NCBI GenBank assembly: GCA_038227875.1
Contig: JBBRPR010000001.1
Span: 1-64,000, forward strand
Length of the DNA: 64,000 bases
From: Planctomycetota bacterium
GTDB taxonomy: Bacteria; Planctomycetota; SZUA-567; H5-PLA8
Direction: 5' to 3'
Under the pieces are notes generated by a model that saw only the letters and a list, made by a program, of their open reading frames with translations, was not told the DNA's origin and did not search any database. Below, one piece after another: positions 26,973-50,059 of this stretch. Every line of letters begins with the position of its first letter. The first letter of the stretch is position 1. The position numbers and the translations under genes were made by a program.

Positions 26973-28700
26973 ATGCGCTTTTCAAAAAGCTCCTTCGCTT
27001 TCCTCGTGCTCTGTTTGTCTGTGCTGGTTGCTCGGCCGTTGTGCGCTGAGCAGGAAGTAATCCTCTCGCAGGGTGAGTTGCAGACGCTCGACAATTTTGA
27101 AGCGGCCAATCTGCTCCGCGCGGAGAAGGCCTTCAATGCCAAGCAGTACAAGCAGGCGGCGATTGAATACGACGCCTTCGCGACCGATTTTCCCAGCTCT
27201 CCGTTGATCGCCTACGCGTACCTCAAAAAAGGGCGCAGCCTGCAGTACGACCACAAGCCGGGCAACGCAATCAAGGCATACACGGACGTGGTCGACAACT
27301 ACAAAGACGCCACGCAGCACGTCGCGGCAGCGATTTTCTACATTGGCGAATGCCATTTCGAAAGCGGTGAGACCGAGCAGGCGATGAAGGCCTGGCGCCG
27401 GATGATCGACGACCCGGCGTTCAGCAAGTCGTTCCTCGCGGCGACGGCGACCAACAAGCTTGCGGACTATTACCTCAAGCAGAAGCAATTCGATCAGGCG
27501 AGCACGTGCTTTGAACTGGCGGCGATCAATTTTCGGGACTCGAATCCGGAATCGGCGCGTGAAGCGATTCGCAAGGTGATCGACTACCGCGTCCGTACGC
27601 AGCCGGACGAAGCAAAGCTGCGCGAATTCTACGCGAAGGCGCGCGGCTTCGACAACGATCCGATCAAGGTGGCTGAAGACACGGCCACTGACAAGCGCTA
27701 CTGGACGCACCTGCTGAAAGCGATCAAGGAGCACGGCACTTTCGCGGAAAACGAAGCAGAAGCGAAGACGGCGTACTACTCGTACTGGGCCACAGCGTTG
27801 AATGGGAAGTTTGCCGACTGGGACGAATACCAGCTGGACGCGGCACGGTTCCGGCTCACGGCCGACCAGAATGTCCAGGCGTGGACCGAGCGCCTGGACG
27901 CGCTCTACACGGCCGGCAAGACCGACAACCCCGTGCGCACGATCCATTTCATTCGTGCGCTGGCGGCCAACAAGCAGAAGGTGGCCGAGTACTTCGGCAA
28001 GCTCAATCTCGACGCGCTCGACAACGACAAGCTGCAGGACCTGATGCGGATTTGCTACCACGAAGCGAAGATGCCGGAGCTGGGCCGCAAGGCCTTCGAA
28101 AAGCTGAAACTGGACAAATGGAACGACGAGCAGAAGCAGAATTGCGCGTGGAACGTGTTGTTGTTTCAGGACGAAGCCAGCTACACGCAGCTGTGCGAAT
28201 CGATCTCCGACAAGGAACTCGGACAGGTGCTGGTGCTGCGCTACTTTCACGGCAAGCACGACACGCCGACAATGTACGTCAAGGCGTTCAGCCTGTGCAA
28301 TGACCTGAAGACCTCAACGCGATTTGCCTCGGAAGCATTCTGGAAGAAGGCGGAGATGCTGCATTGGCAGGGCAAATTCGCGGAAGCGATCCAGGCTTAC
28401 ATGGCGTCGGACAATAAACCCGACAACTTCTTCCGCATCGGCGATTGCTATGTGCAGCTCGGCAAGAAGGAACAGGCCGTCGAGGCGTACACAGAAGTCG
28501 AGCGCACGGACAAAGGCCGCGCGTCGGACGCAGCGTGGCGCATCGCCTGCCTCTACAAGGACAATTCCAAGTTATACATTCCGAAACTGCGGTCAATTTT
28601 AGACAAGTATCCGACCAGCAGCGAATCGAGTAACGCCCACCGGGAACTCGAAAAACTTCATGTCGACATTGGCGGCGGAGTAATCGACGAACAGCGCTGA
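26973..28700 (+). CDS. Secreted tetratricopeptide-repeat protein
   Basis: Signal peptide MRFSKSSFAFLVLCLSVLVARPLCA; BamD/YbgF-like TPR motifs (YKQAAIEYDAFATDFPSSP; AIFYIGECHFESG; FRIGDCYVQLG; ILDKYPTSSES). Confidence 0.9.
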   Translation: MRFSKSSFAFLVLCLSVLVARPLCAEQEVILSQGELQTLDNFEAANLLRAEKAFNAKQYKQAAIEYDAFATDFPSSPLIAYAYLKKGRSLQYDHKPGNAIKAYTDVVDNYKDATQHVAAAIFYIGECHFESGETEQAMKAWRRMIDDPAFSKSFLAATATNKLADYYLKQKQFDQASTCFELAAINFRDSNPESAREAIRKVIDYRVRTQPDEAKLREFYAKARGFDNDPIKVAEDTATDKRYWTHLLKAIKEHGTFAENEAEAKTAYYSYWATALNGKFADWDEYQLDAARFRLTADQNVQAWTERLDALYTAGKTDNPVRTIHFIRALAANKQKVAEYFGKLNLDALDNDKLQDLMRICYHEAKMPELGRKAFEKLKLDKWNDEQKQNCAWNVLLFQDEASYTQLCESISDKELGQVLVLRYFHGKHDTPTMYVKAFSLCNDLKTSTRFASEAFWKKAEMLHWQGKFAEAIQAYMASDNKPDNFFRIGDCYVQLGKKEQAVEAYTEVERTDKGRASDAAWRIACLYKDNSKLYIPKLRSILDKYPTSSESSNAHRELEKLHVDIGGGVIDEQR

Positions 28701-28756
28701 CGGTTTTGCGCGTGCGCTTTCTGCGCGCTGCGCGTTGCATTTTTGAGGTGCAAAAC

Positions 28757-31000
28757 GTGAATCGAAATCCAGTCCTCCACACGTTGCTGTTGGTCCTGGC
28801 CTGCGCGACTGGCGCGTCATCCCCGCTCGTTTGCGGCGGCGACGAAGCGCCGGCCAAGAAGCCCAGCGCCACGGATTCGGACCTGGCGGCACGCAAGCAG
28901 CTTTCCAACGCGAAGGAACTGCTGGACGCGCAGCAGACCGACCGCGGCGTGAAGCTGCTGGAAAATATCCTGGTGCAGTACCCGGCGGCACGCGCGCGGT
29001 TTGAAGTTTATCTAATGCTGGGCCGCCATTACGCGCAGGCCAAGCAGGGGACGCAGGCCAACCATTATTTGTCGCTGCTCCGCAAGGAACTCGAAAAAGA
29101 AGAAGACAAACTGTCGCACGACGAAAAGGACCTGCTGGTGGAAGGCCTGTATTGGGCCGGGGTGGGGTACTACCAATCCGACGAACGGCGCCAGGCGCTG
29201 CCGATCTTCCGCAAGCTGACGGTGGAATATCCGAACACGGTCTGGGCCAACCAGGCCTACCACTACATTGGCATGTGTCATTTCAAGGATCACAACTGGA
29301 GCAAAGCCATCGAAGCGCTGAACCTGGTCGGCACGTCGATCGATCCGGACAGCCCGTCGGTGGAGTACGTCGAGGCGGGCTGGCGCTTTTATGTGAAAGT
29401 GCAGGACGGCGATCTGCCGGTGCTGCGGCGCCTGGGCAAGCAGATCAAGGTCGAGCTGGAAACCAAATCCGGCGACAAGGAGAGCATCATCTGCTCGCCG
29501 CTTTCCGCGCAGGGCGAAATTTACATTGGTTCGATCGCGACACAGGTCGGTGTGGCCAAGCCGGGCGACAACATTCTGCAGGTGACCGGCGGCGACACGA
29601 TCACGGTGCGCTACGTCGATTCCAACACGCAGGACGGCAAACGCGACGTGCTGCGGGAATCGAAAGTGCAGGTGGTCTCATCGGCGACGCTGAACTTCAC
29701 GATGGGCACCTACGAATCGGTGGCGGCGGCCGCGTACCTCGGGCAGCCGGTCTTCGTGCTGCTCAACGATCTCGACAAGGACGTCTCGGAGCAGGCGGAC
29801 ACGGCGCAGGTCAAGCTGGTCTCGCGCTACAAAGTGACCGAGGAAGACCAGCCGCGCATCTCTGGCGCAGCCAAAACAGAAGGCGGCGCCGCGACGTCCG
29901 TGCTCGACGACGACACCCACGAAGTTCAGTGGAAGACCCGTGACGAAGTGCTGCTCACGGTCAAGGAATTGGGAACGCAGGCGCCGATTCATAATTCGCG
30001 ATTTGGCGGCAGCGTGAAGGTCGAGCGCTTCGAAGAAGGCCGGGCAATCGACAAGAACGACGACGTCCTGACCTGTGCGGTCGGCGATGAAATCGTCGCG
30101 ACGTACACCGACGAATTGCACGTCAACGGCAAGACGCCGCGCGAAGTGCGGGTGACGCTGCCGGTCGTCGGCGAGATCGAAAACCGGCCGCACGCCACGC
30201 AGTACGTTTCGTTCGACGCGGTGATCCGGGCGCAGAAGGACCTGACCGAGGGCAAAGCGTACCTGGAACTGGCCAAGATTTTCAAAAACCTGGGATTGAC
30301 GCCCGGCGCGCTGGCCAAGGCCGACCAGGGACTGAGCGAAGTGGAGGGCGTGATCCGCATGCAGGATCCGATTCCCACGGCGCTGAAGGAAGAGGCGTAT
30401 AGCATCAAGTGGAACCTGCTTCTGCTCAAAGAAAACTTTAAAGCAGCGATGGATACGTGCCGGCTGTTCAACCAGCTGTATCCCAATTCGCCGCTGGTCG
30501 ACCAGGCGTTGATGAGTATCGGGAAGATCAAGATTGAGTCTCATTCGTACGACGAGGCGGCGCAGATCTTCACCGAGATCCTGGCGATGCCCAACTCGCA
30601 GGTGAAACCGGAGGCGCAATTCAATCTCGCGCAGGCATTTGAGAACAGCAAGTTTCACAGCAAGGAGCAGGCGATCGCGCAGTACAAGCTCTGCGCGGAA
30701 AAGTACCGCGAAAGCCCGTTCGCCGGCGAATCGCTGGGCAAGATGGTCGACTATTACATCGTCGCCAAGGATTACGCCCAGGCCAACGAACTGCTGGAGC
30801 AGATTTTCACCGACTATCCCGACGCTGAGTTCCTCGACGAGATGCTCTACAAGTCGATCATCGCTTCATACAACACGTCGGAGTTCAAGCGCGCCTACGA
30901 TCGCGCGCAGCAATTGATCTCCGAATACCCATCCAGCAAACGCGCGCAGAAGGCCAAAGACCTGATGCCCAATCTTGAAAAGAAACTGGGGAAGAAATAA
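28757..31000 (+). CDS. Secreted TPR protein with two central beta-sandwich repeats
   Basis: GTG start after GAGGTG; signal peptide; N- and C-terminal TPR arrays (EYPNTVWANQAY, LYPNSPLVDQA); central VKVQDGD...GDTITVRYVD and VLLNDLDKD...GDEIVATYTD repeats. Confidence 0.88.
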   Translation: MNRNPVLHTLLLVLACATGASSPLVCGGDEAPAKKPSATDSDLAARKQLSNAKELLDAQQTDRGVKLLENILVQYPAARARFEVYLMLGRHYAQAKQGTQANHYLSLLRKELEKEEDKLSHDEKDLLVEGLYWAGVGYYQSDERRQALPIFRKLTVEYPNTVWANQAYHYIGMCHFKDHNWSKAIEALNLVGTSIDPDSPSVEYVEAGWRFYVKVQDGDLPVLRRLGKQIKVELETKSGDKESIICSPLSAQGEIYIGSIATQVGVAKPGDNILQVTGGDTITVRYVDSNTQDGKRDVLRESKVQVVSSATLNFTMGTYESVAAAAYLGQPVFVLLNDLDKDVSEQADTAQVKLVSRYKVTEEDQPRISGAAKTEGGAATSVLDDDTHEVQWKTRDEVLLTVKELGTQAPIHNSRFGGSVKVERFEEGRAIDKNDDVLTCAVGDEIVATYTDELHVNGKTPREVRVTLPVVGEIENRPHATQYVSFDAVIRAQKDLTEGKAYLELAKIFKNLGLTPGALAKADQGLSEVEGVIRMQDPIPTALKEEAYSIKWNLLLLKENFKAAMDTCRLFNQLYPNSPLVDQALMSIGKIKIESHSYDEAAQIFTEILAMPNSQVKPEAQFNLAQAFENSKFHSKEQAIAQYKLCAEKYRESPFAGESLGKMVDYYIVAKDYAQANELLEQIFTDYPDAEFLDEMLYKSIIASYNTSEFKRAYDRAQQLISEYPSSKRAQKAKDLMPNLEKKLGKK

Positions 31001-34000
31001 TGCGAAAGTCACTGCTTTCGTGGGGTGCTCTGGGAGTGCTGGCGCTGGGGGTGGCAGTTCCGCATGCCCACGCTGAAAGTGCGCCGCCCAAGACCGCTCC
31101 CGCTCCTGCTGCCGCGACTGCTCCCGATCCGCTCGCGCTGTTGTGCGAGAAGATCCAGAAGAATCCTGAAGCGGCGGACGAGAATGATGTCCGGAGCATG
31201 CTGGAACTGGCGCACACTTCGGCGCACCCGCTCTCGGCGTCGCTGGCGGTGAAGCAGTACCTGGCCAAGCACACCAGCCCTTCGGCGCAGTTGCTTTACG
31301 CCGCGGCGGAGAATGCGGAGCTGGCCGGCGACTACCGCGTGGCGGTCACGCGCTACAAAAGCTACCTGGCGTCACCCGAGAATGCGGAGAGGGCGTCCAC
31401 AGCGGCCAGCCGCATGTACGTATTGCTGATCGATTTCCTCCATTCAGAAAAAGAAGCGTACGAATTCATGCGCAGCGCCGACGAGAAACTGGTGCGCCAG
31501 ACACCATTCGCCAGGCGCTTCGACGTCTGGTTCCTGGAACAGGCGCGCGCCAGCGGCGACGCGCCGTCGGCGGCCAAACGGCTGGTGTCGATTTTCTCCG
31601 AAAAGATGCCGCTGGAAAAAGAGCGGATGCTTTACTGGGACTACCTGGCATGGGTCGAAAACGACGTGCTGCGCCCCAACCCCGACAAGTTTGCCGCCGC
31701 GCCGCATCTCACCGCGCTGGCGCCGCTGATCCGCGAAAACAAAACGCACGCGCTGCGCTGCGCGCTCTCGGCGGCACTGCTGACGTTCTATGTACAGACG
31801 CAAGGGAAGGAGAAAGAGGCGCAGAAGCCATTCTTCGGGCCGGTGGCCAAAGCCGCGCAGGAATACTTCGACAACAATCCCGTCGCGGCCACGTTCAGGG
31901 ACATCGTCAACTGCTTCACCGCTGGCGATGGGAACATCTGGAACATGCAGCTGGAGACCAAGCAGGCGCTGGTGATCGGCATGATCGAGAAACTCAGCGA
32001 CGCCGACCGCGCGGAAGTGATCGCGCCGTACTCCGGACATTCGACGCCCGAACAGTGGACGGCGCTGATCGTCAAAAATCCCGCGCCGTTCAAGGCAACG
32101 CCGCAGATCCGCGCGCTGAACCTGCTGGTGCAAGCGCCGACGCCGGAGCTCTACAAGAAGCTTGGTGAAGTGCTGCAGGGCGTGCCGTCGTACTCCGCGG
32201 CGATCATCAACACCATCAACGCCGGCAATCTGGACATGGACGCAGCCAGCGCCTACATCCTCAAGAATGAAACGTGGCACGCGAACAATCCCAACGAAAT
32301 CATGAGCTGGCTGCGCAACAATGTCTGGGGAACGATCAATTCGTTCGCGCAGGTGGCGAAAAAGCCCTTCGCTGGCGATTACAACGACCGGTTCTATTCG
32401 CGGGTCGGCGCGGAACTGGTTGCGTCGACGCCCGTGGCGTATTCGGACCTGGGACAGACCGGCGAATACCTGCGCGTTTCGTGGTATTACTCCGGCAAGG
32501 ACGCCAACGATCATTCCAAATTCGCGGAGGTGATTCGCAGCCTCGATTGGGTGCCGTATTCCGCGCAGCAGCGGCAGCAGGTCTTCACGCCGGCGCTGAA
32601 CGAATTCCGGCGCTGGTCGGAAGAAGTGAAGAAGGACGCCAAGCGCCTGGCCGAAAATAAGGCCGTGATGGATGAGATCGAAAAAGCGCTGACGCTGGCG
32701 ATGTCGGATCACAAAGGCGATCCGAAAAAGGCGCCCAATGCGCTGTGCAAGGCGCTCAGCGGCTTGGGGCTGGCGATTCAGGCCAAGGACAAGGAAGCGT
32801 ACACGGTTGCGGCGCGCGAACTGTACGCGCAGGTCAAGGAGTACAACGCGGCGCACACGCCGTGGGGCAAGTACATCTACGACACCATTCTCGAGAACCG
32901 CCTGGAGCAATTCGACACGTGGGATTTTCAGTGCGAAGTGCTCGCCGATCAACTCACGCGCTCCGACACGCCCGCGGCTCAGGAACGGATTGTCGAGTGG
33001 AGCCACCGCGTCACCCACCGCCCGAACTGGCAGTGGTGGAACTGGAACTGGTGGCAGGCGACGCAGGTGGACGCCGACAAGGCGCGCAAGCTGCGGGGCA
33101 TCGTGGAGAAGACGATTCTCGAGCAGGCCGACAAGGGGACTCTCTGGACGGAGCTCGTGACGCTCTATCGCTCGACGCGCCAGGGACCCGGCTGGAACGA
33201 CGCCGACAGCGGACACACGGTGCTGGAAAAACTGATCACGACGAAGACGTTCTTCAAATCGCATTACCGCGAAGAGCCGTGGGTGAAATCGGACACCTCG
33301 TCGTATCCATGGCTGATCCAGCGCGAGTTTCAGAAGCAGGACGCGAAGTTTCCGGTCGGCACGTACTTCGACGACATGTACGTGGAGGAAGAGACCGCCG
33401 CGAAGTACATGGATTTTTCGTACTTCAATTTCGGCCGCGACGAGAAGAAGCGCATCCGCAACATGGCGGCGGGATTCTTCAAGGATTTCGAACGACTGCC
33501 ATTCGGGTATTCAGACAAGGCGCCCCAGTACACGCAGGATGAATTCTGGCGCTGGCACTACCAGATCCTGGAAGCCGAGCCGGCGTTGCGCGACGCGTTT
33601 ATTGCTCAAGAGGAAACGTACTACGGAAAGTCGCGCTACGACGACTTCGCCGCGGGACGCGGTTATTTCAGCCACCAGTGGCGCATCGAAAACCCCGAGA
33701 CGCGGAAGAAGTTCTTCGAACGGCTGGGGCAGTTCGTGGAACACATCAAGGATTCCGGAGACCGCGGCGGATTCTCGCCGGAGCGCACAATGGCCGGTCA
33801 ACTTCCGCCCATGCACGCGCTCTCACAGATGGGCGGGAAATTTTCCAAGGAAGAGCTGGATGCGCTGACGGGCCTCTTTCCGCAGTGCGTGCCGCTTCAC
33901 TGGTACGGCGGCTACAGCTACGAATGGTTGCTCACCGCCACGATTGAAGGACTGCTCGAGAAAAAGCGCGAAAACGAATTGATGCCGATCGCCGGGCATC

Positions 34001-37000
34001 TCTGGAAGATCTCGCTGGACACCGGCAACACCGACTACCAGCGCAAGATGGCGCAGTATACGGTGAAATTCTCAGAAGAGAAACATACTGAGTTGGCGAC
34101 GGTGTTCGCGATCGCGGGGCTGGAAGTGATGGGCGAAAAACTTCCTGAAGACGCGCGCGCGTCGCTGCAGGCGATCCGCAGCAAGGGGCTCGGTGCGCTG
34201 GGACACGAGATTCCCGTCGCGGCCAACGACCCACGCTACCCGATCTTTTTCGCGCAGAGCGAATTCCAGAATGGCAAGCAACCCAGCGCGTGGGAGACGT
34301 ACCAGGCCAATCCGGCGCTGGTGACCTCGTCGTACAAGGAACTGGATATTGGCTTCCTGCTCTGGCTGCTGGCGCGCAACACCGATGCCGGGCAGTTCGA
34401 CCGCGCCGATGCACTGGCTCACGCTTTAATTCCGTGGGTGGAAGGCAGTCCCGCCGCGTTTGAACCCGATGCGCGCGGCCGGTTGATGCTCTATTACGGC
34501 GACATTTCCTACGCACGAAAAAATTTCCCACGCGCGCGCAAGGATTACGAACGCGTCACGGCAAGCAAGGAATATGAAGGCACGCTGGCGCAGCGCGAAG
34601 CGGAACTGCGCATCGCGGAAGTGGATCGCGCCGTGAAGGACTACGATGCGGCGCTGCAGCGCCTGGACCGCCTGGCCAAGCGCCACGACGTGTACCTCGA
34701 GACGGAAGCCAACTACCAGATGGCACTGGTGAAGTTCGACCAGGCCGACTACGAGGGCGCACAGCGCTACCTGGAAGAAGTTTTCGCGCACACGCCCGAA
34801 CATGAAAAGGGCCGCCTGCTCGAAGCCGATGTGAATTTGAAGCGCGAGCAGCCTGACAAAGCGACAAACATCAAGGGCGGTATGACGCAGGAACAGAAGC
34901 TGCTGATTCCCGGCACGCCGCTACGCGTCAACTTGAAGGATACGAATCTTTCGGTGGTCGGAAATTCATCGCGCATCGAAGTGCGCGTCTGGACGGATTC
35001 CGGCGACAGCGAAACCATCAATCTGCTGCCGACAGACACGAAAACACAATTCGAAGGCGAAATCACCACCACGATGGGTCCGGTGAAGAAAGACGACCAC
35101 CAGCTGCAGGTGCTGGGCGGCGACAAAGTTCACTACGATTACTCGGAAAAGTTCAAAGAGGAACACAAGATCGCGCGCAACGAACCAGTAACATTGGAAG
35201 TGGCCTCGAACTCGCAGTTGATCGTCTCGTCGGGAAAAATTCTGACCAAGGAAGAGCAGCAGGACCTGGAGGCCGAGCGCCAGATCCGGCAGAGCCTGAA
35301 AGGTGACGACGCGCAGACGACGCTGAGCACCACGCGCGCCGAGGACCAGATCAAGCCGGGCAATAAGATCAACGTGCGTGTGATCGACTTCGACCGCAAC
35401 ATCAGCGCGGAAAAAGACACTGTGATGGTACGCGCGACGGCTTCCAGCGGCGACGTGATCGAAGCGTTCCCTCTGGTGGAGACCGATACGCACTCTGGAA
35501 TTTTTGAGGGTGAAATACCAACGGCGCCCGGCCATCCAATGGCGACAGCCTCGGATTCAGGAGAAGGCCGCGAACCGAACAACGTGATCTCCAGCGTGGA
35601 CCGTCCGGCGTGGATCGCGCAGTCCGACGGCCGCCGCCCGAAGATCTTCACCGTGAATTTAAACGACAACGTGAAGATGCAGAGCTTGAATATTCTTGCC
35701 GACGTTCCCGACCGCAAACTGAAGGCGTTTGCCGTCGAGACGTCGATGAACGGCACCGACTATTCGGCAGTCGGTATCTGGCCCGATCAACTCGCGCCGT
35801 GGGACGGCGCGCTGACGTGCGAGCTGATGAAGTGTCCGGAGGGTCCGGCGCGGTTGCAGGACGCGGTCTCGTACGCCGATGGCGGGTACCAGCGGACCGG
35901 CGCGCCGAAAGTGACACTGCCGATGAAGACCTTCGGCATCAGCCTCGACAATCAGCTCAACGGCAACGCCGACAAGATCAAACTGACGTGGCAGGAATCA
36001 ACTGCGTGGTACCTGCTGCACATGCACGGCGCGTTCTATCTTCCCAAGCGTGAACTGAAAACGTTCACGCTCGACAACAAGAAAAAGTTCAACGAGATGC
36101 GCTACTTCTTCGCTGTCGACGGTGTGGCCGCGCCGGCGAACAACGCACTGGAGATCAAGCGCGAACTGGCGAAGGGCGTGCACCGCGTTGACGTGTATGT
36201 CTGGTCGCACCGCCACACAGGCGTGACGTTCGACGTGCAGACGACGTCCTCGGAGGACGGGACGCCGGCGGTCTGCAGCGCCGAAATGTTTGACCCGGTC
36301 AAGCAGCCGGCGATCAAGGAAGCCTGCTGGGTCGAACCGGCGCAGGTGAAAGCCGGCGCGGAGAACACATCGTTCGACGTCAGCTTCGCCAAGGGCGCGC
36401 ACGCGCGGTTTTTGCGGCTGGTCATCGCCGACTACGAAAAGGACGCGCCGGGCCTCCATAAGCTCAAGCTGGTCGACACTGAAAATCAGACCGTGCTGCC
36501 GACGAAGGACGACTTCATGGCGCTGCGCGAAAACAAGACGCTGGAAATTCTACCCGGCGACAAGATCACCGTGACGTACCGAGATCCTGTTGTGGTGACG
36601 AAGGGACAGGAAGTGCAGGAACGCTTCATGACCGCGACGTTCTACAATGCGAAGCTCAGCGCTTGCTTGGTGGAATATGTGCCGACTGCGCGCGGAGACA
36701 AACTTCCGAAGTACATCCCGCTGCGCCGCTTCATTCCCGGCGACCCGGGCGATCCCAATCACACCGGCGTCAACAATGTCTTCGTCTTCATCAACGATCC
36801 CGACGAAGACACAACTGATGCGCCCGACAAGATCAAGTTCAGGGCCGTGGCCGGAAAATCGACGCTGGAATTGGAAGCGACGGAGACCGAACCGCATTCG
36901 GGCGTGTTCGTCGGCAACATTTATCCCGTTACCGGCGCGCCCAAGCGGCCCAACGAGATCACCGTCGGTCCCGATGACGACATCACCATTCATTACATGG

Positions 37001-39033: not shown

Positions 39034-39056
39034 AGCAGGGATTTGAGGAGGACGGC

Positions 39057-40854: not shown

Positions 40855-40864
40855 GGGCGTCACT

Positions 40865-42499: not shown

Positions 42500-42528
42500 T
42501 GAACGCCGCATTTCCCGAGGGCAGTGCC

Positions 42529-45500
42529 ATGCCACGAACGTGGGTGTTGACCGTCGCGTGTTTGATTCTGGGATTCGCACGCGCTGGACTTTCCGAGGAA
42601 CTGGAGCTCGATCCGCAGCCGACGAGCACAGCCGCCGCCGAAGAGATCAAGGGCGGGATGCTTTTCCGCTTCGTACCGTTGAACAAGCCGACGGAAAATC
42701 TGGAGGAGCATCTCTTCTGGCGCACGTTCGAGGGCGCGGTGGCGGCAGAGGCCGCTCCGATCAAGCTGCTGATCGACAATCAACCCGTGATCGCGCCGAA
42801 AGAGATTACGATCAAGGACCGCGGCCAGGCGCTGCAGTACCCGCTGGAAGGGCACAAGGATCTGTCCAACGGCAAGCACGTCATCGTGCCCGGCGACATT
42901 GCCATCGTGATGACCAGCGGAAAAATCACGTCGGCTCATCCCGCAATCAAGTCCGACGAAAATGAAGTGCGCGTGCTCTGCGCGCCGGTGCGGTTGGAGG
43001 CGCTCGACGCCAACGGCGTCGCGGTGCCGACCTCGATCAATCTGTCCTTCGGCAAGGAACGGCTGCTGCGCAGCGTGGAGAAGTTTTCCGTACTGACGGT
43101 CTGGCTGCCAATTGGCGTGAAGTACGCCTCGACGCTCGGTAGCTTTTCGGTGGGCGCCGACGGCAAGGTGTCCGCACTTCCAGCGGAACTGGCCAAAGAT
43201 GTAACCGTAACACCCGAAGGATTGCGCCTGCTGGTCAGCACGCCGCCTGCGGCTCCGCCCCGGACGCAGACCTTGTCGCGGGTCTTCGCGCATCCGCTGC
43301 CCGGCGGCAAGGGCACCCTGAATTGCTACTTCAATCCGGTGGTGAAGCCCGGTGAGGCCGCGCGCGTCACGTTCTCAAAGAAGCAATTTGAGAGCGGCAC
43401 GGGCTCCGCTTTTGTCGCGAACGAATTTACCTATGCATTTCCCAACGGCTCGGGCGGCGCGTGTGGGGTGGAGAAAGCCGTCGCGGATGCAGCGTTGATT
43501 GCCTCCGAGCTGCAGATGGAGGCGGCCGAGCTGGTACAGTTGAAAATTCCCAGCCCGGCATGGACTGCGACCGGCGTGATGCCGTTCAAGATCGAAAACA
43601 AAAAGCTGGGCACGATTTCCCAGACGCTGGTCTACGCGGATCCCGCCGCTTCGCTGTACGTCATACCGCATCGATTGCGCTCGGTCTTCACGGATGCGGA
43701 AAATGCCGGCTTCACCGTGCTGCTCAAGCCGAACTTTCCCGGCGGGTCGGCGAACGTCATCTGCAAGAGCGACGCCGCCGACGCCAAGCCGCTGACTCTC
43801 GGTACGTTGCAGCTTCCCGCGGTGGCCGGGAAGCAATTCGATTCGCGGTTGTTCGCGATCAAAACGAGCGCGTTGCCGGCGGGCAATTACCAGCTCTGGG
43901 TGGAAGCCGGCGGGGTGGCGAGCAGCCGCGTGCCGCTCTCGATTGTCTCGTGGTACTTCCGCAGCCCGTTTCTCGTGCATGAAATGCCCGGTTGCGCGGG
44001 TGCCTGGCCCACGGACGACGAGGGCTTGAAAGTGCTTCAGGATGCCGGCGTCGAAATGATTTCCAGCGGCGGCTTTGGCAGCATCTTTAAGGCGAGCGAC
44101 ATGCCGGGAGTCGATCAGGCACTGGCCGCAGCGCTGCGTGACGAACTGGGAATGCCCGTGGAGACGGCGCAGCAGCGCTGCCCGGCGGACTTCGCGCTCC
44201 AGGACATGCTCAAGCACCACATCCGCATCATCGACTTCTATCCGCGCGGGGAGAATTTTTATCTCGAAGGGTTGTCGTACCATCACAGTTTCAAACCCAG
44301 CGTCGATCGCATGATCCGCCGCCTGCAGATCTTTACGCAACAGACGATGGATTACCCCTCGCTGTGGGGCATGAATTATTCGTGGTTCCCGGCGCTCTTT
44401 GGTTATTCGGAAGGCGGACTGGACACGGACATCCACAAGCGCGATCGCAACGCGGCGCTGGCGGCGAACCTGAAGCAGGCGGGCCTCGAAAATCTGACCG
44501 CCGACGAACGGAATTTTTATCTCGCCAACGCGTTCTCCGATGACGAAGCAAAGCGCGCAAAGTCGCTTGAGCTGATGCAGAAAGCCACGCGCTACTGGAA
44601 GGCGCAGATGGATTTCGGTTTCGGCCGGCACAACAAATTGTACAACGACGCCGTGCGTGACGTTCAGCCGGGCGCGGCCTGCGTGCTGTTTGAAAACGCG
44701 GGACACGACGAACTCAAGCGCACCCGCTCGCTGTTCAACGACATGACGGCGATGACATACGAAAGCTACAGCGACTATCCTGAGTGGCCGATGTCGTCCT
44801 CGTTCACGACCGACTGGGGTCGCGGTAACTTTCCCGGCCGGCCGCTGTGGGTCACGATGGATCCGGGTAACAGTTCCGAAGGCCAGATGAAAAGCTTGTT
44901 CCACGCCTTTGGCCGTGGCGCGGCCGGTGCGGGCACGGTGATCGTCGAGCCGCTGAACCTGCAGGAGATCAAACGCCGCACAAAGGGCCACCAGTTTGTC
45001 GCGCAGTACGGAGCGATCGCAACTAGAGGCACGCCCGATCACCGCTTCGCCATTCTCTCCACCGCCGCGCAGCAGGTTTTCGTGGGCCGCACGCAGTATG
45101 CCTATCATGCCATGTACTACCATCTCACGCGGCTGGGCTGCGCGCCGGTCATCGTCGACGATGAAGACGTTGGCAACGCCGGCATTCCCGCCGGCACGCA
45201 GGTCCTGTTCCTCGTCCGGCAGCAGCAACCGCTGGAACCCAAGGTCTTGAGCGCAATCAAGGCATTCACAGACAAGGGTGGCAAGGTCATCGTCACCGGC
45301 GATACGAAAGTGAAGATCGACGGCTCAATCGTCGCGGGCAACACCGTGAAAAATATTTGGGACCTGGGCGGCTTCGTTTCGCACCCGCAATTGTGGGAGG
45401 AGTTCGAAAAGAATTGGGAGAAGCCCTTGACCGAAGCGCTGGCGAAGGCTGGCGTTCCTCCCGCGGCGAAAACCGATCCGCACCGCGGCGTTGTGGTTTC

Positions 45501-48500
45501 AGTCGACAGCGGCTCGGTGCGCTATGTAGTCGTGATCTCGGATGAAGAAAATCAGTCGTGGGCGGTCTTCAAACCCAATCCAGCGCTCCCGGTTTCTCTG
45601 GAAGGGACCGGCTGGACCGTGCGCGATCTGGTGAAGCAACAGCTGCTGAAAGGCGCGGAGAAGGATGGCCGGACGGATGTCTCCGTCGATCTGATCACCG
45701 AGCCGGTGACCGTGCTGGCGCTCTACAAAGAAGCACCGTCGGCCGTGACCATCAAAGTCCAAGGCGATGTTCACGCTGGCGGCGATCTGGTGCTTAACAC
45801 GGAGGTGCTGGCCGGCGCAAAACCGCTGGGCGCGGTACCAATTCAGGTCGACATCACCGATGCCGCGGGCGTGGTCCGTTTCTCGGCGTACCGCGGCGCG
45901 GGCGACGAAATCCGCTGCGCCGTTCCCGGATTGGATGTGGCCGGAAATTGGACGATCAAGGTTCAGGAGCAAATCACCGGCGTCACCGCAACTGCGGCCG
46001 TCGCGGTCGGGGCGGCAGTGAAAGCCGAAGCCGCGCTGACGTCGGTGGGTGATGTTCATGTCGTCAACGCCGATCACCTCCATAAATTCATGAAGCGCAC
46101 CAGCGAAAAGCGAATTGTCGTGGAGCCGGGCCAGGAAAAGTTTCTGCCGGTCGCCAGGAAACTCGCCGATGACCTTACCGCTGCCGGAGTGAAGACGACG
46201 GTCTGGCAGACGAAGGCCGACGACTACGACACGCTGCCGATCCGCTGGTACCCGCGCGAAGACGAAGACGTGCCGCGCTGGAACCTGCTCAACGCCGGCA
46301 AGATGATCGCCGTCCGCGAGAACATGAAGCCGTACGTCGACACGGTCAACCGCGCACACATTCCGGAAAAAGGCGGCTACGGCGAAGTCAATCCGCCCTA
46401 CATGGTCGGCTTCGATTGCATTCTTTTCTCCGGTGGGCGACTCGCGGAAAGTCTTCGCGCGCAGACGCCATGGATGGAAACGCCGAACGTTCCGGGCAAG
46501 GGGCAGGGCCGCCTGGTCGTCTGCTTCAGTCCGTTTCTCGCCAATTTTAATGCGCTGGCGCTGGTGGCCAACGATGAGGCCGGGACGAGCAAGGCCGCTG
46601 CGGAATTGCTGAACTTTGCCAAACCCGCTGCTGCTGCAGTTGTGAATGCGCCGGGCGGAGAATGGAAGTCACTGACGCCAACGGTGGCGACGGCTCCCGT
46701 CGTCGAAACGTTCGCACCCTATTCGCCGCTGCGCCACGTTCGCAATCTCTGGGCGACGCGAGACGGCAAGACCGTGGTCTGCCTGGACAGCAAGAACGAT
46801 ACACTCGCGTTCGTCGATCCGGCCGGAAAAGTCGTCGCCTCGGTCGCTACGGAAGTTCAGGACCTGAAACATTCTCACATCGATGACGGTGGACGATTCT
46901 GGACCTGCACGTCCAAACACACGAGCGGCGAATGGTACATGCAGGAGTTGACGTTCCACTGCATCGGTCCTGACGGCACGCAGCACAGCGACTCGCCCGT
47001 TTACAATGGCAGCGTGTACTTCGACACGCTGCCCACGGATTACCCGGGCGGCTTCAATGTCGCGCCCAACGGCACGACAATGCTCCTGGGTCTGCGCGGC
47101 GGTTTTCAACTCGGTGATGTCGGCACGGCAAAATGGAACCGCTTCGCCGACGAACCTTTCGTGCCGGTGCGCGATGCGATCCGGCATCCGCGCTTCCCTG
47201 TCGGGTCGGCGTTCTCGCCGGATTCCAAATACGTGTTGCTGACGATGGACACACGGCCGCCCGGTTGGGGCGGCATGAATATGCCGGCCGAACATCCGTG
47301 CGCCAGTGCCACCTTTCTTTTCGATACGGTAAGCGAAAAAGTGCTCTGGCAACTTCGCGACGATGAGATCCGCAAGTCCACGTATGCGGTGCATACCGGT
47401 TTCGGCGCCGTCTCCCGCGACGGAAGCGTCGCGGCGATTGCCGACTACCGCGGCTCGGTTTACGTCGTCGATAAGACCGGCGCGATCCAACTACAGGAAG
47501 TAATCAACACGAAAATTCCCGAGCGCTTTGCTTCCGGCCCGATCGACGGCGTGGGAGTGTGGATGAGCGAATCGGGAAATCTGACGGCGGCCGCGTTTAA
47601 GAATCTGCTTCTGGTCATCAACGGCAAACACGTGGAACGCGTGAAGTTGCCGGCGATCGCCACCGGCTGCGTCAGTCGCGATGGCACGCTGGCGGTTGCG
47701 GCGCTGGAAAGCGGTGAGGTCGAGGCGTTTGATGCAGAAGGAAAGCCCAAATGGGTGTTCAATTCCAACGGCGTCGCCCCTTTCCTCGCTCCGGTGAACG
47801 ACAACAGCACTCTCGTGGCGACCAGTGAAGGCGATCTGGTGCTGCTCGACGCCGGCGGCAAGGAAGTGCGCCGCACGCACCTGCTCGAAACTACGGAGCA
47901 GGCGCGACATGAAGTGAAGAACGCGGCGGATTTCAAACCGGCAATCATGCCGCAGGCCTACCGCGAACCGGACACGCTGGACGTGGCGAAAAAATTGCTC
48001 GGCGCCAAGGCGATTGCCGCGTGGAAGCCCGCCGGGGCTGCCGTGGCGGCGTTCAATCGCACATTCTATCCCGCCACGGAGAAAATCACGCTGACCGGCG
48101 ATTCGCCGCGCGGCGAGGCTTTCCTGCATCTGGTCTACCGCCGCTTGCCGACAAATAAATCGCTAACCGTCGTCGTGCCGCTGGGCAAGGAAGGCACCGA
48201 AGTCTTCGATCTGGATCTGGAGACGCCCGAATACCGCGTGATCGATATTCCCGTGCAGGGCGTCAAGCCGGTGGTGAACGTGATTCCGACCGGCCCGACG
48301 GAAATCGCCGAATGCACGCTCTACAGCATGCAATGGCCCAGCCCCAATCTGGCGCTGGTCAAGCAAACGAAGACGATGGAGACCTCGCTGGAGCCCGACA
48401 AACTGGACGACACCGCCGATTCCGAGTCGAAGGCCGATGCCGCGCTGATGGAGCTTAAGGGTGAGGACGGCATCATTGGAAAAATGAAGAACTGCGCGAT

Positions 48501-48915
48501 CTTCGTGCCCAATCCGGACGTCGACAAAATCAGCGGGGCATTTCTACGGGCGGGCGTGGATGCATTGAAGATGGTCGACGGCAAACGTTTTGGAAACGCG
48601 CACGTTCCAGCGTGGAAGCCGGGCCTGCTCTTCATGGGCTCGTGGATGACGATTGATTTCGCCAAGCCGGTAACGATCAGCCTGGTGGCGACCTACGATC
48701 GCGCGCAAAAGCAATCGCTGGTGAATCAGAACATTGCCGTCTTTTCCATCGATGGAACGCGTGAAAAAGTGCTCAACGGCATCACGATCAATGACCAGTA
48801 TTGGTGCGTGTTCCCCACGCCCGCGCGCGAGGTAAAAACGCTCGGCGTGCACATTATTGCGCCGAAGGACGAAGGGCTGAGCGAGATTGAGGCGTATCAG
48901 AGTCTCGAGAAGTAG
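42529..48915 (+). CDS. Very large secreted multidomain protein: glycoside-hydrolase-like barrel and trimerisation-like region, beta-propeller, C-terminal discoidin-like domain
   Basis: Signal peptide MPRTWVLTVACLILGFARA (alternative start 42499). Propeller blades AFSPDSKYVL, AVSRDGSVAA, VSRDGTLAV, FDAEGKPKW. C-terminal WMTIDFAKPVTIS...LSEIEAY. The GH-like assignment is tentative. Confidence 0.8.
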   Translation: MPRTWVLTVACLILGFARAGLSEELELDPQPTSTAAAEEIKGGMLFRFVPLNKPTENLEEHLFWRTFEGAVAAEAAPIKLLIDNQPVIAPKEITIKDRGQALQYPLEGHKDLSNGKHVIVPGDIAIVMTSGKITSAHPAIKSDENEVRVLCAPVRLEALDANGVAVPTSINLSFGKERLLRSVEKFSVLTVWLPIGVKYASTLGSFSVGADGKVSALPAELAKDVTVTPEGLRLLVSTPPAAPPRTQTLSRVFAHPLPGGKGTLNCYFNPVVKPGEAARVTFSKKQFESGTGSAFVANEFTYAFPNGSGGACGVEKAVADAALIASELQMEAAELVQLKIPSPAWTATGVMPFKIENKKLGTISQTLVYADPAASLYVIPHRLRSVFTDAENAGFTVLLKPNFPGGSANVICKSDAADAKPLTLGTLQLPAVAGKQFDSRLFAIKTSALPAGNYQLWVEAGGVASSRVPLSIVSWYFRSPFLVHEMPGCAGAWPTDDEGLKVLQDAGVEMISSGGFGSIFKASDMPGVDQALAAALRDELGMPVETAQQRCPADFALQDMLKHHIRIIDFYPRGENFYLEGLSYHHSFKPSVDRMIRRLQIFTQQTMDYPSLWGMNYSWFPALFGYSEGGLDTDIHKRDRNAALAANLKQAGLENLTADERNFYLANAFSDDEAKRAKSLELMQKATRYWKAQMDFGFGRHNKLYNDAVRDVQPGAACVLFENAGHDELKRTRSLFNDMTAMTYESYSDYPEWPMSSSFTTDWGRGNFPGRPLWVTMDPGNSSEGQMKSLFHAFGRGAAGAGTVIVEPLNLQEIKRRTKGHQFVAQYGAIATRGTPDHRFAILSTAAQQVFVGRTQYAYHAMYYHLTRLGCAPVIVDDEDVGNAGIPAGTQVLFLVRQQQPLEPKVLSAIKAFTDKGGKVIVTGDTKVKIDGSIVAGNTVKNIWDLGGFVSHPQLWEEFEKNWEKPLTEALAKAGVPPAAKTDPHRGVVVSVDSGSVRYVVVISDEENQSWAVFKPNPALPVSLEGTGWTVRDLVKQQLLKGAEKDGRTDVSVDLITEPVTVLALYKEAPSAVTIKVQGDVHAGGDLVLNTEVLAGAKPLGAVPIQVDITDAAGVVRFSAYRGAGDEIRCAVPGLDVAGNWTIKVQEQITGVTATAAVAVGAAVKAEAALTSVGDVHVVNADHLHKFMKRTSEKRIVVEPGQEKFLPVARKLADDLTAAGVKTTVWQTKADDYDTLPIRWYPREDEDVPRWNLLNAGKMIAVRENMKPYVDTVNRAHIPEKGGYGEVNPPYMVGFDCILFSGGRLAESLRAQTPWMETPNVPGKGQGRLVVCFSPFLANFNALALVANDEAGTSKAAAELLNFAKPAAAAVVNAPGGEWKSLTPTVATAPVVETFAPYSPLRHVRNLWATRDGKTVVCLDSKNDTLAFVDPAGKVVASVATEVQDLKHSHIDDGGRFWTCTSKHTSGEWYMQELTFHCIGPDGTQHSDSPVYNGSVYFDTLPTDYPGGFNVAPNGTTMLLGLRGGFQLGDVGTAKWNRFADEPFVPVRDAIRHPRFPVGSAFSPDSKYVLLTMDTRPPGWGGMNMPAEHPCASATFLFDTVSEKVLWQLRDDEIRKSTYAVHTGFGAVSRDGSVAAIADYRGSVYVVDKTGAIQLQEVINTKIPERFASGPIDGVGVWMSESGNLTAAAFKNLLLVINGKHVERVKLPAIATGCVSRDGTLAVAALESGEVEAFDAEGKPKWVFNSNGVAPFLAPVNDNSTLVATSEGDLVLLDAGGKEVRRTHLLETTEQARHEVKNAADFKPAIMPQAYREPDTLDVAKKLLGAKAIAAWKPAGAAVAAFNRTFYPATEKITLTGDSPRGEAFLHLVYRRLPTNKSLTVVVPLGKEGTEVFDLDLETPEYRVIDIPVQGVKPVVNVIPTGPTEIAECTLYSMQWPSPNLALVKQTKTMETSLEPDKLDDTADSESKADAALMELKGEDGIIGKMKNCAIFVPNPDVDKISGAFLRAGVDALKMVDGKRFGNAHVPAWKPGLLFMGSWMTIDFAKPVTISLVATYDRAQKQSLVNQNIAVFSIDGTREKVLNGITINDQYWCVFPTPAREVKTLGVHIIAPKDEGLSEIEAYQSLEK

Positions 48916-48942
48916 ACCCTGGTTCAAATTTGTACCAGATTC
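48915..48942. repeat. AAATTT-centred imperfect palindrome
   Basis: GACCCTGGTTCAAA|TTTGTACCAGATTC, 11/14 pairs, starting at the last base of the TAG stop. Confidence 0.7.
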
Positions 48943-48955
48943 GGGGAGCGTGGCA

Positions 48956-50059
48956 GTGAATGTACGAATGATCATCTTTCTCGGGCTGGGCTGGATCACC
49001 ATGACGATGCACGTTTCAGCGCTGGAAACAATCACTGCGACCGACCGGATTGTCTTTGTCGGCGATTCAATCACCGATGGCTTTACCTGTCCCTTGCTGG
49101 TCCAGCAGGCCCTGTCCGAGGCCGGAAAACCCGTACCGAAGCTGATCAACGCTGGCGTCGGCAGCGACACCGCGGAGATGATGGCCAAGCGCATCGAGCG
49201 CGATGTGCTGCCGCAACGCCCAACGCTCGTTTTCCTGAGCGCCGGTGTTAACGACGCGATTCGCAACGTTTCCGTGGAAGCGTATCAGAAGAGCATTAAA
49301 TCGATTACCGCGCAGCTGCAGAAGGAAAACATCCCGATCGTCATTTTCACAGCGACAATCCTGGGTGAGCCAAACGCGGACAAGGAAAAACGCATCGATG
49401 AATTCAACGTTTTCCTACGCGCGTTTGCCGCGGAATCCGGTTACCGCGTCGCCGATGTCAACGCGTTGATGCAGGCGGCACGAAAGTCCGGCGACCAGGG
49501 CATGATCATGACCGATCACGTGCACCTGACGTTCCACGGTTACGAATTCATGGCGCGCGCCGCACTGAATTCGCTGGGGCTAGGCGACCTGAGCGTGCCG
49601 ACGGAACTTAAACCGCCGCCATACTCCGGGTTGATCAAGTCCTGGAAATTCCGCACGGCCAAAGACGCGTTGACCGACCAGACGATCCGCGACGTCACCG
49701 TCGACGGCACCTGGAAGTCGTACGAACTGCCAGAAAAGCAACCCGTAACGGAGAGCTGGTGGACCGAGCACGAACGGCAGCGCGGCACGGCCGTCTCGGT
49801 CGAACGCGAATTCGGAAAGTCGCCGCGGTACATTGGCGTGACGGAACTTGAGGAGAAAGCGCCACGCAGCGTGACGTTCCACGTCGGCGCGGCGCTCGAC
49901 GCCATCTGGCTTAATGGTCAGCGCATCTACAAAGCCTCTGACTGGCGCGGCTGGCATCTGGACCGCGAACGCGCGTCGGCGGAACTGAAAGCCGGACGCA
50001 ATCAGCTCGTGATCGAGACCTGCGGACAGTTCATTTTAACGATGGATGATGGAAAATGA
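48956..50059 (+). CDS. SGNH/GDSL hydrolase family protein with C-terminal beta domain
   Basis: VFVGDSITDG, INAGVGSDT, SAGVND, DHVH. GTG start follows GGGGAG (alternative ATG 48968). Confidence 0.92.
   Translation: MNVRMIIFLGLGWITMTMHVSALETITATDRIVFVGDSITDGFTCPLLVQQALSEAGKPVPKLINAGVGSDTAEMMAKRIERDVLPQRPTLVFLSAGVNDAIRNVSVEAYQKSIKSITAQLQKENIPIVIFTATILGEPNADKEKRIDEFNVFLRAFAAESGYRVADVNALMQAARKSGDQGMIMTDHVHLTFHGYEFMARAALNSLGLGDLSVPTELKPPPYSGLIKSWKFRTAKDALTDQTIRDVTVDGTWKSYELPEKQPVTESWWTEHERQRGTAVSVEREFGKSPRYIGVTELEEKAPRSVTFHVGAALDAIWLNGQRIYKASDWRGWHLDRERASAELKAGRNQLVIETCGQFILTMDDGK

Follow-up and report, generated by a model that had tools for sequence, protein, structure and literature searches.

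A motor-swapped variant of a conserved PVC operon, probably for a proton-driven envelope machine with a DUF4159-headed transducer

Ton and Tol are the two textbook routes by which double-membraned bacteria bring energy to their outer envelope. Other loci of PVC bacteria come closer to the one reported here. Computational work published in 2025 (Williams-Jones et al., PMC12204202, section 8) describes a combination of a gene for a TPR protein, a motor of the tolQ-like type, tolR-like genes and a transducer with an SHLS helix and a non-TonB head; the transducer helix is modelled there on the motor's edge, by way of a His that is conserved, and the published locus comes from a species without a recognisable TolA or TonB. 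The other parallel is the MUL1 locus of Akkermansia. According to secondary sources, its gene Amuc_0544 (mul1A), termed a 'mucin transport gene', encodes a TPR protein and adjoins ExbD and ExbB genes, and the mul1A mutant makes no use of mucus-derived host glycans and colonises mice about 100-fold more poorly. The supplement rows list Amuc_0544 as a large secreted TPR protein of 120.8 kDa (COG1729/YbgF-type) and the gene order as 0543, 0544, a small gene, ExbD, a hypothetical gene and ExbB. In an ISME J paper, aquatic Akkermansiaceae are reported to be without MUL1 synteny and MUL1 to be confined to gut Akkermansia.

We analysed a window of 64,000 nucleotides from a Planctomycetota genome. Nine co-directional open reading frames occupy positions 26934-50059 of its + strand, and two further genes follow on the - strand:

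26973..28700 (ORF from TTG 26934), +, TPR588, a secreted TPR protein of 588 aa, first in the conserved block (Pfam TPR matches, signal-peptide-like N-terminus)
28706..31000, +, TPR764, a secreted protein of TPR, two beta-sandwiches and TPR, with a CpoB- and BamD-like C-terminal TPR part (NCBIfam, AF2)
31000..39033, +, the giant TPR protein, 2677 aa, with a signal peptide (Pfam TPR matches, tblastn)
39057..40034, +, an ExbB/TolQ-type proton channel, 325 aa from its ATG (PF01618)
40031..40462, +, ExbD/TolR, 143 aa, single copy (PF02472)
40459..40854, +, Stub131, a bitopic protein of 131 aa, divergent member of the small c3 family (c3 HMM)
40865..42499, +, the transducer: five membrane helices, a disordered linker and a DUF4159 head (PF13709, AF2)
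42496..48915, +, a secreted 2139-aa protein, a family-level neighbour outside the conserved core (sub-threshold Pfam matches)
48887..50059, +, an SGNH/GDSL hydrolase extended at its C-terminus, probably starting at ATG 48968, a family-level neighbour (PF13472, GDS motif)
50114..54296, -, two tandem paralogues of about 680 aa with a likeness to GHL15/GH31 TIM barrels (sub-threshold Pfam matches)

The tight packing given in the original prediction is confirmed by the ORF coordinates and junctions. The first ATG of TPR588, at 26973, begins the signal peptide. Taking the longest ORFs, TPR764 and the giant TPR gene meet in a TAATG with one nucleotide (31000) in common; a 23-nt gap separates the giant TPR gene from the ATG of ExbB at 39057; ExbB and ExbD are joined by an ATGA overlap (40031-40034), ExbD and the stub by a GTGA overlap (40459-40462), and the transducer and the 2139-aa gene by another GTGA (42496-42499), with 10 nt between the stub and the transducer. 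The SGNH gene overlaps the 2139-aa gene by 29 nt, or follows it after 52 nt if it begins at ATG 48968. Promoter and terminator scans of 26250-27000 and 38900-50300 gave nothing better than chance.

A genome scan returned 369 candidate stretches, 286 of them encoding a relative, and the best 80 loci were kept. ORF calling in high-GC loci was strand-restricted, since greedy calling gave antisense ORFs; 9 of the 80 loci, in which the transducer ORF was not clustered at the thresholds used, were left out of the flank and c2 counts. Upstream sequence of 9 kb or more is available for the DUF4159 gene in 48 loci. Its most constant neighbour, the giant TPR gene, precedes it in 47 of these; ExbB/ExbD family proteins are present in 45 (three members in 33), c3 in 37 and a further family, c5, in 30. 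Homologues of the giant TPR protein were found by tblastn in 56 of the 80 loci, at 33-42% identity and mostly across more than 2000 residues. In 53 of 61 loci a membrane protein, c2, comes after the transducer. Six of seven further regions repeat the order TPR588, TPR764, giant TPR; there, homologues of TPR764 (40-51% identity) are directly preceded by homologues of TPR588 (33-41%); the latter are likewise placed in two related genomes, G059, a member of the window's family, and G125. The operon of genes 1-7 is conserved across Planctomycetota, Verrucomicrobiota, Lentisphaerota and Kiritimatiellota, and because the same order recurs in loci of four phyla, chance cannot account for the arrangement. 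The neighbourhood search suggested as a check in the original prediction, once run, finds the core genes syntenic in many other PVC genomes. We consider it probable that genes 1-7 (26973-42499) represent this lineage's own version of an operon conserved in PVC bacteria, for an envelope machine driven by the proton motive force on the Ton/Tol principle.

Of 201 genomes sampled from the window's phylum, 13 were found to carry the system, as were 12 of 201 from a second phylum; both counts may be low, since only seven first-look candidates were scored per genome. Among the five other genomes of the window's family it is present in two. Such a patchy system is therefore not a housekeeping machine.

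The idea of a single nine-gene unit stands for genes 1-7, which are widely conserved, but not for the 2139-aa and SGNH genes. These are family-level neighbours: sequence searches located them in the window's own family, where they are rearranged, and otherwise in one close relative only. Homologues of the 2139-aa protein were seen in L032 (50%) and G059 (40%), and weakly in L076; of the 80 loci, 2 have such a homologue and 1 has an SGNH homologue. An SGNH homologue of 42% identity lies near the cluster on the other strand in G059 and G125, and a homologue of one of the 680-aa paralogues (58-65% identity) lies downstream of the cluster in both genomes. Are these genes mere bystanders, co-directional here by happenstance, with only genes 1-7 forming the unit? 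Their rarity would be in keeping with this, as would the usual succession of transducer, c2 and then variable genes, and the arrangement in G059, where the homologue of the 2139-aa protein precedes the TPR genes in inverted orientation and that of the SGNH hydrolase is found 11 kb downstream, also on the opposite strand. However, in this second genus homologues of the 2139-aa, SGNH and GH-like proteins have all stayed no more than about 15 kb away from the core despite the rearrangement, and the 4-nt overlap between the 2139-aa and transducer genes of the window suggests co-transcription. We lean against the bystander reading, while regarding it as a serious possibility, and would see these genes as possible family-specific accessories.

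The 'GH-like' label first given to the 2139-aa protein found no support: its matches (DUF4350, ABC_transp_aux, DUF7402 and a BamB-like propeller) are all sub-threshold, PDB sequences gave no match, and its best score in the ESM Atlas (0.88, under 0.9) is a lead only. The SGNH call is well founded, with 80.3 bits against Lipase_GDSL_2 (PF13472), over the Pfam cut-off, and a visible GDS motif. The two 680-aa paralogues match GHL15/GH31 at E values of 0.0017-0.0077, under the Pfam cut-offs. Large secreted proteins are common downstream of the core, among them the 2139-aa protein of the window and, in L079 and L076, giants of the PA14 or propeller type.

All three TPR proteins have Pfam TPR matches, as had been predicted. 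In an AF2 model of TPR764 (pLDDT 75.8), TPR helices at 55-206 and 505-762 enclose beta-sandwich strands at 220-490. For the giant TPR protein the predicted Ig part is unconfirmed, with a single sub-threshold S-layer match (2276-2341). Foldseek with the TPR764 model returned only generic TPR, BamD, PilF and S-layer Ig matches. TPR764 exceeds the NCBIfam cut-offs for tol_pal_ybgF (93.7 bits against 90.1) and OM_YfiO (81.9 against 81.4), yet with 764 residues and a TPR/beta-sandwich/TPR build it does not have the size of CpoB.

The transducer had been read as an SxxxH protein of TonB-like topology with a Pro-rich stretch and a DUF4159 tip, and each of these traits was recovered. Its AF2 model (pLDDT 84.2) has helices at 11-43, 59-80, 85-118, 130-158 and 188-213; by helix order the fifth, with RRVR just before it, runs from inside to outside. 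It carries S196 and H200, the SxxxH pair; 24 sequences show no variation at either residue, and across 101 their conservation is at least 90%. In all, 190 full-length-type homologues were found. The linker has a K/P-rich stretch, residues 228-318 are mostly under pLDDT 50, and the head scores 107.4 bits against DUF4159 (PF13709), over the Pfam cut-off. This head is an alpha/beta sandwich whose top Foldseek match is 4i66 (E 1.9e-9, TM 0.80 on the target; profile match E 2e-6, 17% identity), followed by GATase and ThuA folds; among the matches listed, to rank 50, there was no vWA chain. A metagenome scan with the window transducer gave four loci, the only close one (83% identity) on a 1.2-kb contig. 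Stub131, the other His-helix protein, bears His39 within the membrane helix; its tail is rich in Pro, and its C-terminal peptide is SLDELKLDTK. Among 22 window ORFs it is matched by an HMM of 59 c3 proteins (E 1.4e-6), a family with a His within the hydrophobic stretch in 62 of 62 proteins and an H40 invariant in 55 sequences.

The motor sets the window apart. ExbB (107.5 bits against MotA_ExbB, PF01618) and ExbD (106.3 bits against PF02472) are both over the Pfam cut-offs; ExbB ends in a tail of about 100 aa rich in Pro, Ala and Lys, and Asp31 of ExbD sits within the membrane helix. Elsewhere the operon's usual motor consists of ExbB, a pair of differing ExbDs and a small partner in the cytoplasm, and the second ExbD, besides ExbB and ExbD, was found by Pfam in the sampled loci. 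The window has a single ExbD gene, as have L032 and L051. Its ExbB shares 46% identity over the full length (blastp) with an ExbB on contig C42 of its own genome, against some 30-39% across only about 100 aa with the operon's usual ExbB, and in the ExbB tree the window, L032 and L051 cluster with the genome's own C42 and C91 proteins (support 100). HMM searches of the window for c5 and c2 gave no match (E above 0.002), so these partners are absent rather than diverged, and the cluster is without three usual partners. G059, of the same family, carries c5, two ExbDs, c3 and c2. In the transducer tree the window copy belongs to a separate 12-row clade (support 100), and the G059 copy to the main clade. 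The window carries a variant in which an ordinary ExbB-ExbD pair stands in place of the operon's usual motor. An ordinary pair can replace the motor while transducers and TPR proteins persist, which points to the His-bearing helices, rather than the motor, as the specific part of the system, and makes the swap a natural experiment for mapping the motor-transducer interface.

A distinct apparatus powered by ExbB/ExbD had been predicted, with no TonB-dependent receptor, TolB, Pal or beta-barrel noticed in the window; Pfam and NCBIfam scans detected no TonB_C, TonB-dependent receptor, TolB or Pal among the window ORFs scanned, and the claim of distinctness is supported. TonB_C (PF03544) matched no cluster protein in Pfam and has its only genomic match at C5:205508-205732; the three receptor matches of the genome are on contigs C41, C139 and C70. 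In this 88%-complete genome the best NCBIfam scores for TolB (83.5 bits, cut-off 343) and Pal (73.7 bits, cut-off 125) fall short and do not lie near a motor gene, and the conserved block encodes no outer-membrane component. The operon might itself be the PVC stand-in for Tol-Pal, in which the motor and both His-helix proteins, together with the CpoB/BamD-like TPR proteins, would keep the outer membrane tethered and aid its constriction at division. The lack of TolB and Pal over the cut-offs throughout the genome would fit, as would the absence of recognisable TolA or TonB from the species of the published locus (PMC12204202, section 8), the TPR764 score for CpoB/YbgF, a weak match of Stub131 to the TolA N-terminal model (18.1 bits) and the NCBIfam scores of the motor, higher for tolQ (147.6 bits) than for exbB (125.4) and for tolR (98.6) than for ExbD (78.3). 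These tolQ and tolR scores are nonetheless under the equivalog cut-offs (221 and 127.3), as is that for exbB; the motor shares its lineage with the genome's ordinary ExbB-ExbD pairs, the block has no peptidoglycan-binding partner, and so scattered an occurrence, in few genomes of two phyla and in 2 of the 5 others from the window's family, is not what a housekeeping division system would show. We hold a Tol-Pal role to be quite unlikely.

We give still less credence to surface movement or adhesin transport, by analogy with Agl-Glt of Myxococcus or gliding motors, in which a surface adhesin would be coupled to the motor through the DUF4159 head and the TPR proteins. A gliding-type role is what the authors of the published loci suggest for their transducers (PMC12204202, section 8), and large secreted proteins are often encoded downstream; these giants, however, lack conservation (that of 2139 aa occurs in 2 of 80 loci), neither the window nor the sampled loci yielded a gliding component of the Glt type or any other (Pfam; NCBIfam for the window), and the genome has its own flagellar MotA/MotB set.

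Returning to the envelope machine on the Ton/Tol principle, from the observed parts list, conserved order, topology, motifs and motor swap we infer that the parts bind one another. An ExbB pentamer and an ExbD dimer in the inner membrane would convert proton flow into movement; the 131-aa stub and the five-helix SxxxH protein would dock on this motor via His-bearing helices of the TonB/TolA kind; and the SxxxH protein would pass force along its disordered K/P-rich linker to the periplasmic DUF4159 head, which would occupy the place of the C-terminal domain of TonB or TolA. The three secreted TPR proteins, about 4000 residues in all, may be a periplasmic or outer-envelope scaffold, or the target.

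To our knowledge, the routes by which PVC bacteria take up large glycans are not understood. As to the job of the machine, we infer, with considerable doubt, that it spends energy on handling large glycans or bringing them into the periplasm, with no TonB-dependent barrel involved; possible family-specific accessories would be the 2139-aa protein, the two GH-like proteins and the SGNH esterase. The hint lies in the GH-like, SGNH and 2139-aa genes that stay near the cluster in G059 and G125 despite rearrangement, that is, in the neighbourhood of one family, and in the Akkermansia locus, likened by annotation. One might speculate further, and here the chances are rather poor, that this is a third proton-driven trans-envelope machine besides Ton and Tol, with an exchangeable ExbB-ExbD motor, two cooperating His-helix transducers (one tail-only with a conserved strand-like end peptide, one DUF4159-headed) and a TPR/beta-sandwich scaffold of about 4000 residues, and that through it polysaccharides or glycoproteins enter the enlarged periplasm of PVC bacteria whole, with no TonB-dependent barrel. 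If so, it would supply the engine so far lacking for 'selfish' uptake of glycans by Planctomycetota and Verrucomicrobiota, and would be distantly related to the mucin-uptake locus of Akkermansia. With 286 relatives in the scanned species genomes, a spread over at least four PVC phyla and its scaffold of that size, the operon does look like a third output of the Ton/Tol motor family.

Compared with Ton, the locus shares an ExbB/ExbD-family motor, an SxxxH membrane helix and a Pro/Lys-rich periplasmic linker; it differs in having neither a TonB_C domain nor a nearby receptor barrel, those of the genome lying elsewhere. With Tol-Pal it shares a motor that scores best against the tolQ/tolR models and, in TPR764, a CpoB/YbgF-like TPR part; it departs from it in lacking the TolA C-terminal domain, TolB and Pal, in its sub-equivalog tolQ/tolR scores and in its patchy distribution. 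The head agrees in fold with 4i66, the DUF4159 structure of Hoch_4089 from Haliangium ochraceum, which unlike the transducer is a free-standing protein of 209 aa without membrane anchor or linker.

MUL1 likewise belongs to a PVC bacterium, and in it ExbD and MotA/TolQ/ExbB genes adjoin the gene of a large secreted TPR protein. In the supplement rows, compared by annotation, the gene order is different and no 2400-aa TPR or DUF4159 gene is evident. We rejected an identity of the cluster with MUL1, given the 120.8 kDa of Amuc_0544, the differing gene order and the reported gut specificity; since its synteny is reported absent from aquatic Akkermansiaceae, MUL1 is not the widespread operon. Two MAGs labelled Akkermansia (L006 and L008) belong to a seven-genome family. 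In the sources consulted, MUL1 is the only studied locus with a similar parts list and the only such locus with a phenotype, being needed for mucin use by Akkermansia; for members of the present operon those sources describe no experiment.

The nearest relatives are the loci of PMC12204202 (section 8), where the core arrangement already appears as a computational finding, so that the system cannot be called undescribed, as the original prediction had it. Matched by description rather than by sequences, the window system likely belongs to this family. Both have a TPR gene, a TolQ/ExbB-type motor and a transducer in the same order; in both transducers a membrane helix bears a Ser/His motif, the linker, published as a disordered or proline-rich stretch of about 100 residues, is disordered, and the alpha/beta head has no relation to TonB_C; and the taxa are the same, PVC including Kiritimatiellota. 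The differences are (i) the head, a vWA fold as described there and DUF4159 (GATase1-like, 4i66) here by Pfam and Foldseek; (ii) the motif helix, with His35 there and His200 here, in the fifth of five helices, after four extra ones; (iii) the defining pair of different tolR-like genes, against one ExbD in the window; and (iv) the single TPR gene mentioned in that section, against three conserved here together with c3 and, in most loci, c5 and c2. The vWA label may have its source in proteins like P0118, a YfbK-like vWA protein with a closely similar DUF4159 end. What is new here is the motor-swapped variant, with one ExbD and three usual partners missing.

Within 26934-50059 (+), ORF calling in the window gave nine ORFs, overlapping or at most about 50 nt apart, so that the nine co-directional genes of the original prediction are real. 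Signal-peptide-like N-termini can be read in the sequence of every non-membrane protein of the cluster. The AlphaFold2 model of TPR764 (pLDDT 75.8) consists of TPR, two beta-sandwich regions and TPR again, as the earlier description "TPR-Ig-TPR" had it. The "GH-like" label given to the 2139-aa protein found no support in Pfam, NCBIfam, PDB or ESM Atlas searches.

Genes of the cluster at 26934-50059 (+), in order, with Pfam/NCBIfam matches, and features in and around it
TPR588: TPR matches
TPR764: TPR matches
Giant TPR (2677 aa): TPR matches
ExbB: MotA_ExbB, 107.5 bits
39750-40034: Pro-, Ala- and Lys-rich C-terminal tail of ExbB, ~100 aa
ExbD: ExbD family, 106.3 bits
131-aa protein: no Pfam family, weak TolA N-terminal match
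544-aa protein (the transducer): DUF4159, 107.4 bits
2139-aa protein: sub-threshold matches only
390-aa protein: GDSL/SGNH hydrolase, 80.3 bits
19120-26291: ABC ATPase and FtsX/MacB-type permease (1104 aa, then a 597-aa protein without family), adjoining a PQQ/BamB-like beta-propeller protein
50114-54296 (-): two tandem paralogues of ~680 aa, GHL15/GH31 likeness sub-threshold only
57386-63069: a second, separate ABC ATPase and FtsX/MacB-type permease module, also adjoining a PQQ/BamB-like beta-propeller protein

A pattern scan of species genomes yielded 369 candidates, 286 of them encoding a relative; from these the 80 best loci were retained for comparison. With the window proteins as tblastn queries, the giant TPR protein was recovered in 56 of these 80 (33-42% identity, mostly over >2000 residues), ExbB in 3, ExbD in 2, the 2139-aa protein in 2 and the SGNH hydrolase in 1. 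Clustering of the + strand ORFs, with a Pfam check on 38 proteins, gave a common order, which we call type A: giant TPR, c5 (small, without membrane helix), ExbB, ExbD, a second ExbD, c3 (bitopic, ~155 aa), the transducer (family c1) and c2 (a membrane protein of 330-940 aa). Omitting 9 of the 80 loci, whose transducer ORF was unclustered, the giant TPR is present in 47 of the 48 loci with at least 9 kb upstream, the motor family in 45 (three motor-family genes in 33), c3 in 37 and c5 in 30, and c2 follows c1 in 53 of the 61 loci with at least 1.5 kb downstream. The core of the operon is a conserved machine, and the gene neighbourhood holds across genomes.

Since most loci stopped within the giant TPR gene, seven extra upstream regions were taken. 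The succession TPR588, TPR764, giant TPR recurs in six of them (TPR588 33-41% and TPR764 40-51% identity); the exception is L005, in whose genome the giant TPR is non-adjacent too. The ABC/FtsX, 597-aa and PQQ genes that lie 5' of the block in the window are absent from all seven regions, so the conserved unit begins at TPR588. Two loci, L070 and L072, carry a variant in which a TPR764-like protein (754 aa, or 1098 aa also containing a TPR588-like part) stands immediately 5' of ExbB in place of the giant TPR, and their ExbBs form a clade of their own.

The window departs from type A in its motor, as do two other loci, L032 and L051. In these three (type B), ORF clustering and HMMs found c5, the second ExbD and c2 to be missing. 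In an IQ-TREE tree, to be taken with caution since the search was quick and the branches are long, their ExbBs stand apart from those of the other loci and group, at support 100, with two ordinary ExbB paralogues that the window's genome encodes on contigs C42 and C91. By blastp, the window ExbB has 46% full-length identity with the C42 paralogue, against ~30-39% over ~100 residues with type A ExbBs. The transducers of the type B group likewise form a separate 12-row clade (FastTree, support 100). Genome G059, a member of the window's own family, carries every gene of type A and a transducer of the main clade. In our reading of these relationships, the motor was probably replaced in the lineage that led to the window; alternatively, ancient paralogy followed by differential loss may account for them.

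The window's genome holds seven MotA/ExbB-family matches, including the flagellar MotAB, an ExbB with four ExbDs (L083, G000:C15:29038-41379, the ExbD-family genes following in tandem on the same strand) and two ExbB-ExbD pairs adjoining ECF sigma genes. These pairs (L081 on C91, L082 on C42) are the nearest to the window's motor, and each is preceded by a long ECF-sigma fusion protein (600 and 862 aa); on C91 a 1291-aa CBM9 protein follows the pair. There are eleven DUF4159 matches in the genome, several being tandem double domains, and another DUF4159 protein, with a 305-aa frame, is encoded ~12 kb past the window on its contig (G000:C1:75694-76308, -). The sole TonB_C gene of the genome and its three receptor barrels are all away from the cluster, and neither TolB nor Pal reaches the cut-off in this genome. 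Among the candidate roles of the operon, glycan handling ranks first, as a tentative assignment; a Tol-like envelope role comes second and seems unlikely, and a motility role, third, is less likely again.

The predicted Ton/Tol-like force-transducer mechanism is well supported by the anatomy of the proteins. That the Ser and His of the TonB or TolA helix touch the motor is established. For the transducer, 190 homologues of comparable length were found, typically sharing 35-38% identity across 85-100% of the query. An alignment of 24 sequences shows no variation at S196 and H200, and in one of 101 sequences both are at least 90% conserved. Its AlphaFold2 model (pLDDT 84.2) contains five long helices, the fifth (188-213) holding S196xxxH200, then a stretch mostly below pLDDT 50 (228-318) and a confident alpha/beta domain. 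The charge pattern (RR at the N-terminus, RKPGTLK past helix 2, RRVR ahead of helix 5) would place this head in the periplasm. With Foldseek, the head matches a DUF4159 protein, PDB 4i66 (E 1.9e-9, TM 0.80), which a profile search with the transducer also recovered; next come glutamine-amidotransferase and ThuA-like folds, and the Foldseek matches listed for the transducer, down to rank 50, include no vWA chain.

The 131-aa protein is matched by an HMM of 59 c3 proteins (E 1.4e-6). A His lies within the hydrophobic helix in all 62 proteins examined, and H40 is the sole invariant column across 55 aligned sequences; the family also conserves YIRDxWIDPEGA after the helix and ends in EIPxxPxDLGISIxDTN. 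The window protein has His39 and ends in SLDELKLDTK, a weaker form of this terminal motif. Its c3 membership and His39 bring to two the number of His-helix proteins in the operon: one bears a head, the other a tail alone.

Of the 201 genomes sampled from the window's phylum, 13 carry the transducer family at E 1e-60 or better (10 of 188 of good quality), as do 12 of 201 from the phylum of genome G002, which makes the system patchy and accessory. The MAGs of L006, L008, L017, L029 and L045 carry Akkermansia or Anaerolineales labels, L006 and L008 nonetheless belonging to a seven-genome family, and in the trees of both ExbB and the transducer the phylum labels are interleaved, which points to horizontal transfer of the operon or to MAGs that are mislabelled.

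The peripheral genes behave differently from the core. In G059 and G125, which carry related clusters, a homologue of the 2139-aa protein (40%) is found upstream in inverted orientation, and a GH-like homologue (58-65%) and an SGNH homologue (42%) lie downstream; these genes are thus kept close within the family, outside the wider operon. Both ~680-aa paralogues match one gene in G059 and G125 (58-65% identity), so the duplication is confined to the lineage of the window.

In the literature searched, no experimental study of the operon was found, and a search on DUF4159 returned the Pfam database paper only. The nearest studied case is MUL1 of Akkermansia, said to resemble Sus. Its mul1A (Amuc_0544), termed a "mucin transport gene", encodes a TPR protein (COG1729, 120.8 kDa), and Amuc_0546 and Amuc_0548 are annotated as ExbD/TolR and MotA/TolQ/ExbB. 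Given the 120.8 kDa of Amuc_0544 and the reported absence of MUL1 synteny in aquatic Akkermansiaceae, we rejected identity with our cluster; by the annotation rows available, MUL1 is thus an analogue at a different locus.

The system had been put forward as undescribed and is already in print. Williams-Jones et al. (2025; PMC12204202) describe transducers in which a disordered linker joins an SHLS helix to a "vWA" head, state the Ser/His-motor contact in TonB/TolA, and model the transducer helix at the motor edge via the His; they also note the lack of any known deletion phenotype. In its supplement, Victivallis TolQ has a long cytoplasmic tail similar to that of the window ExbB, and the Tichowtungia locus has two transducers, with a stator box near residues 55-60. 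Two transducer genes per cluster also occur in L046, L025 and G017:C3:92405-95619. Compared by description, the published loci and type A have the same architecture, whereas the head is labelled differently there and the helix sits at another position than here. To this published system the window adds a new variant.
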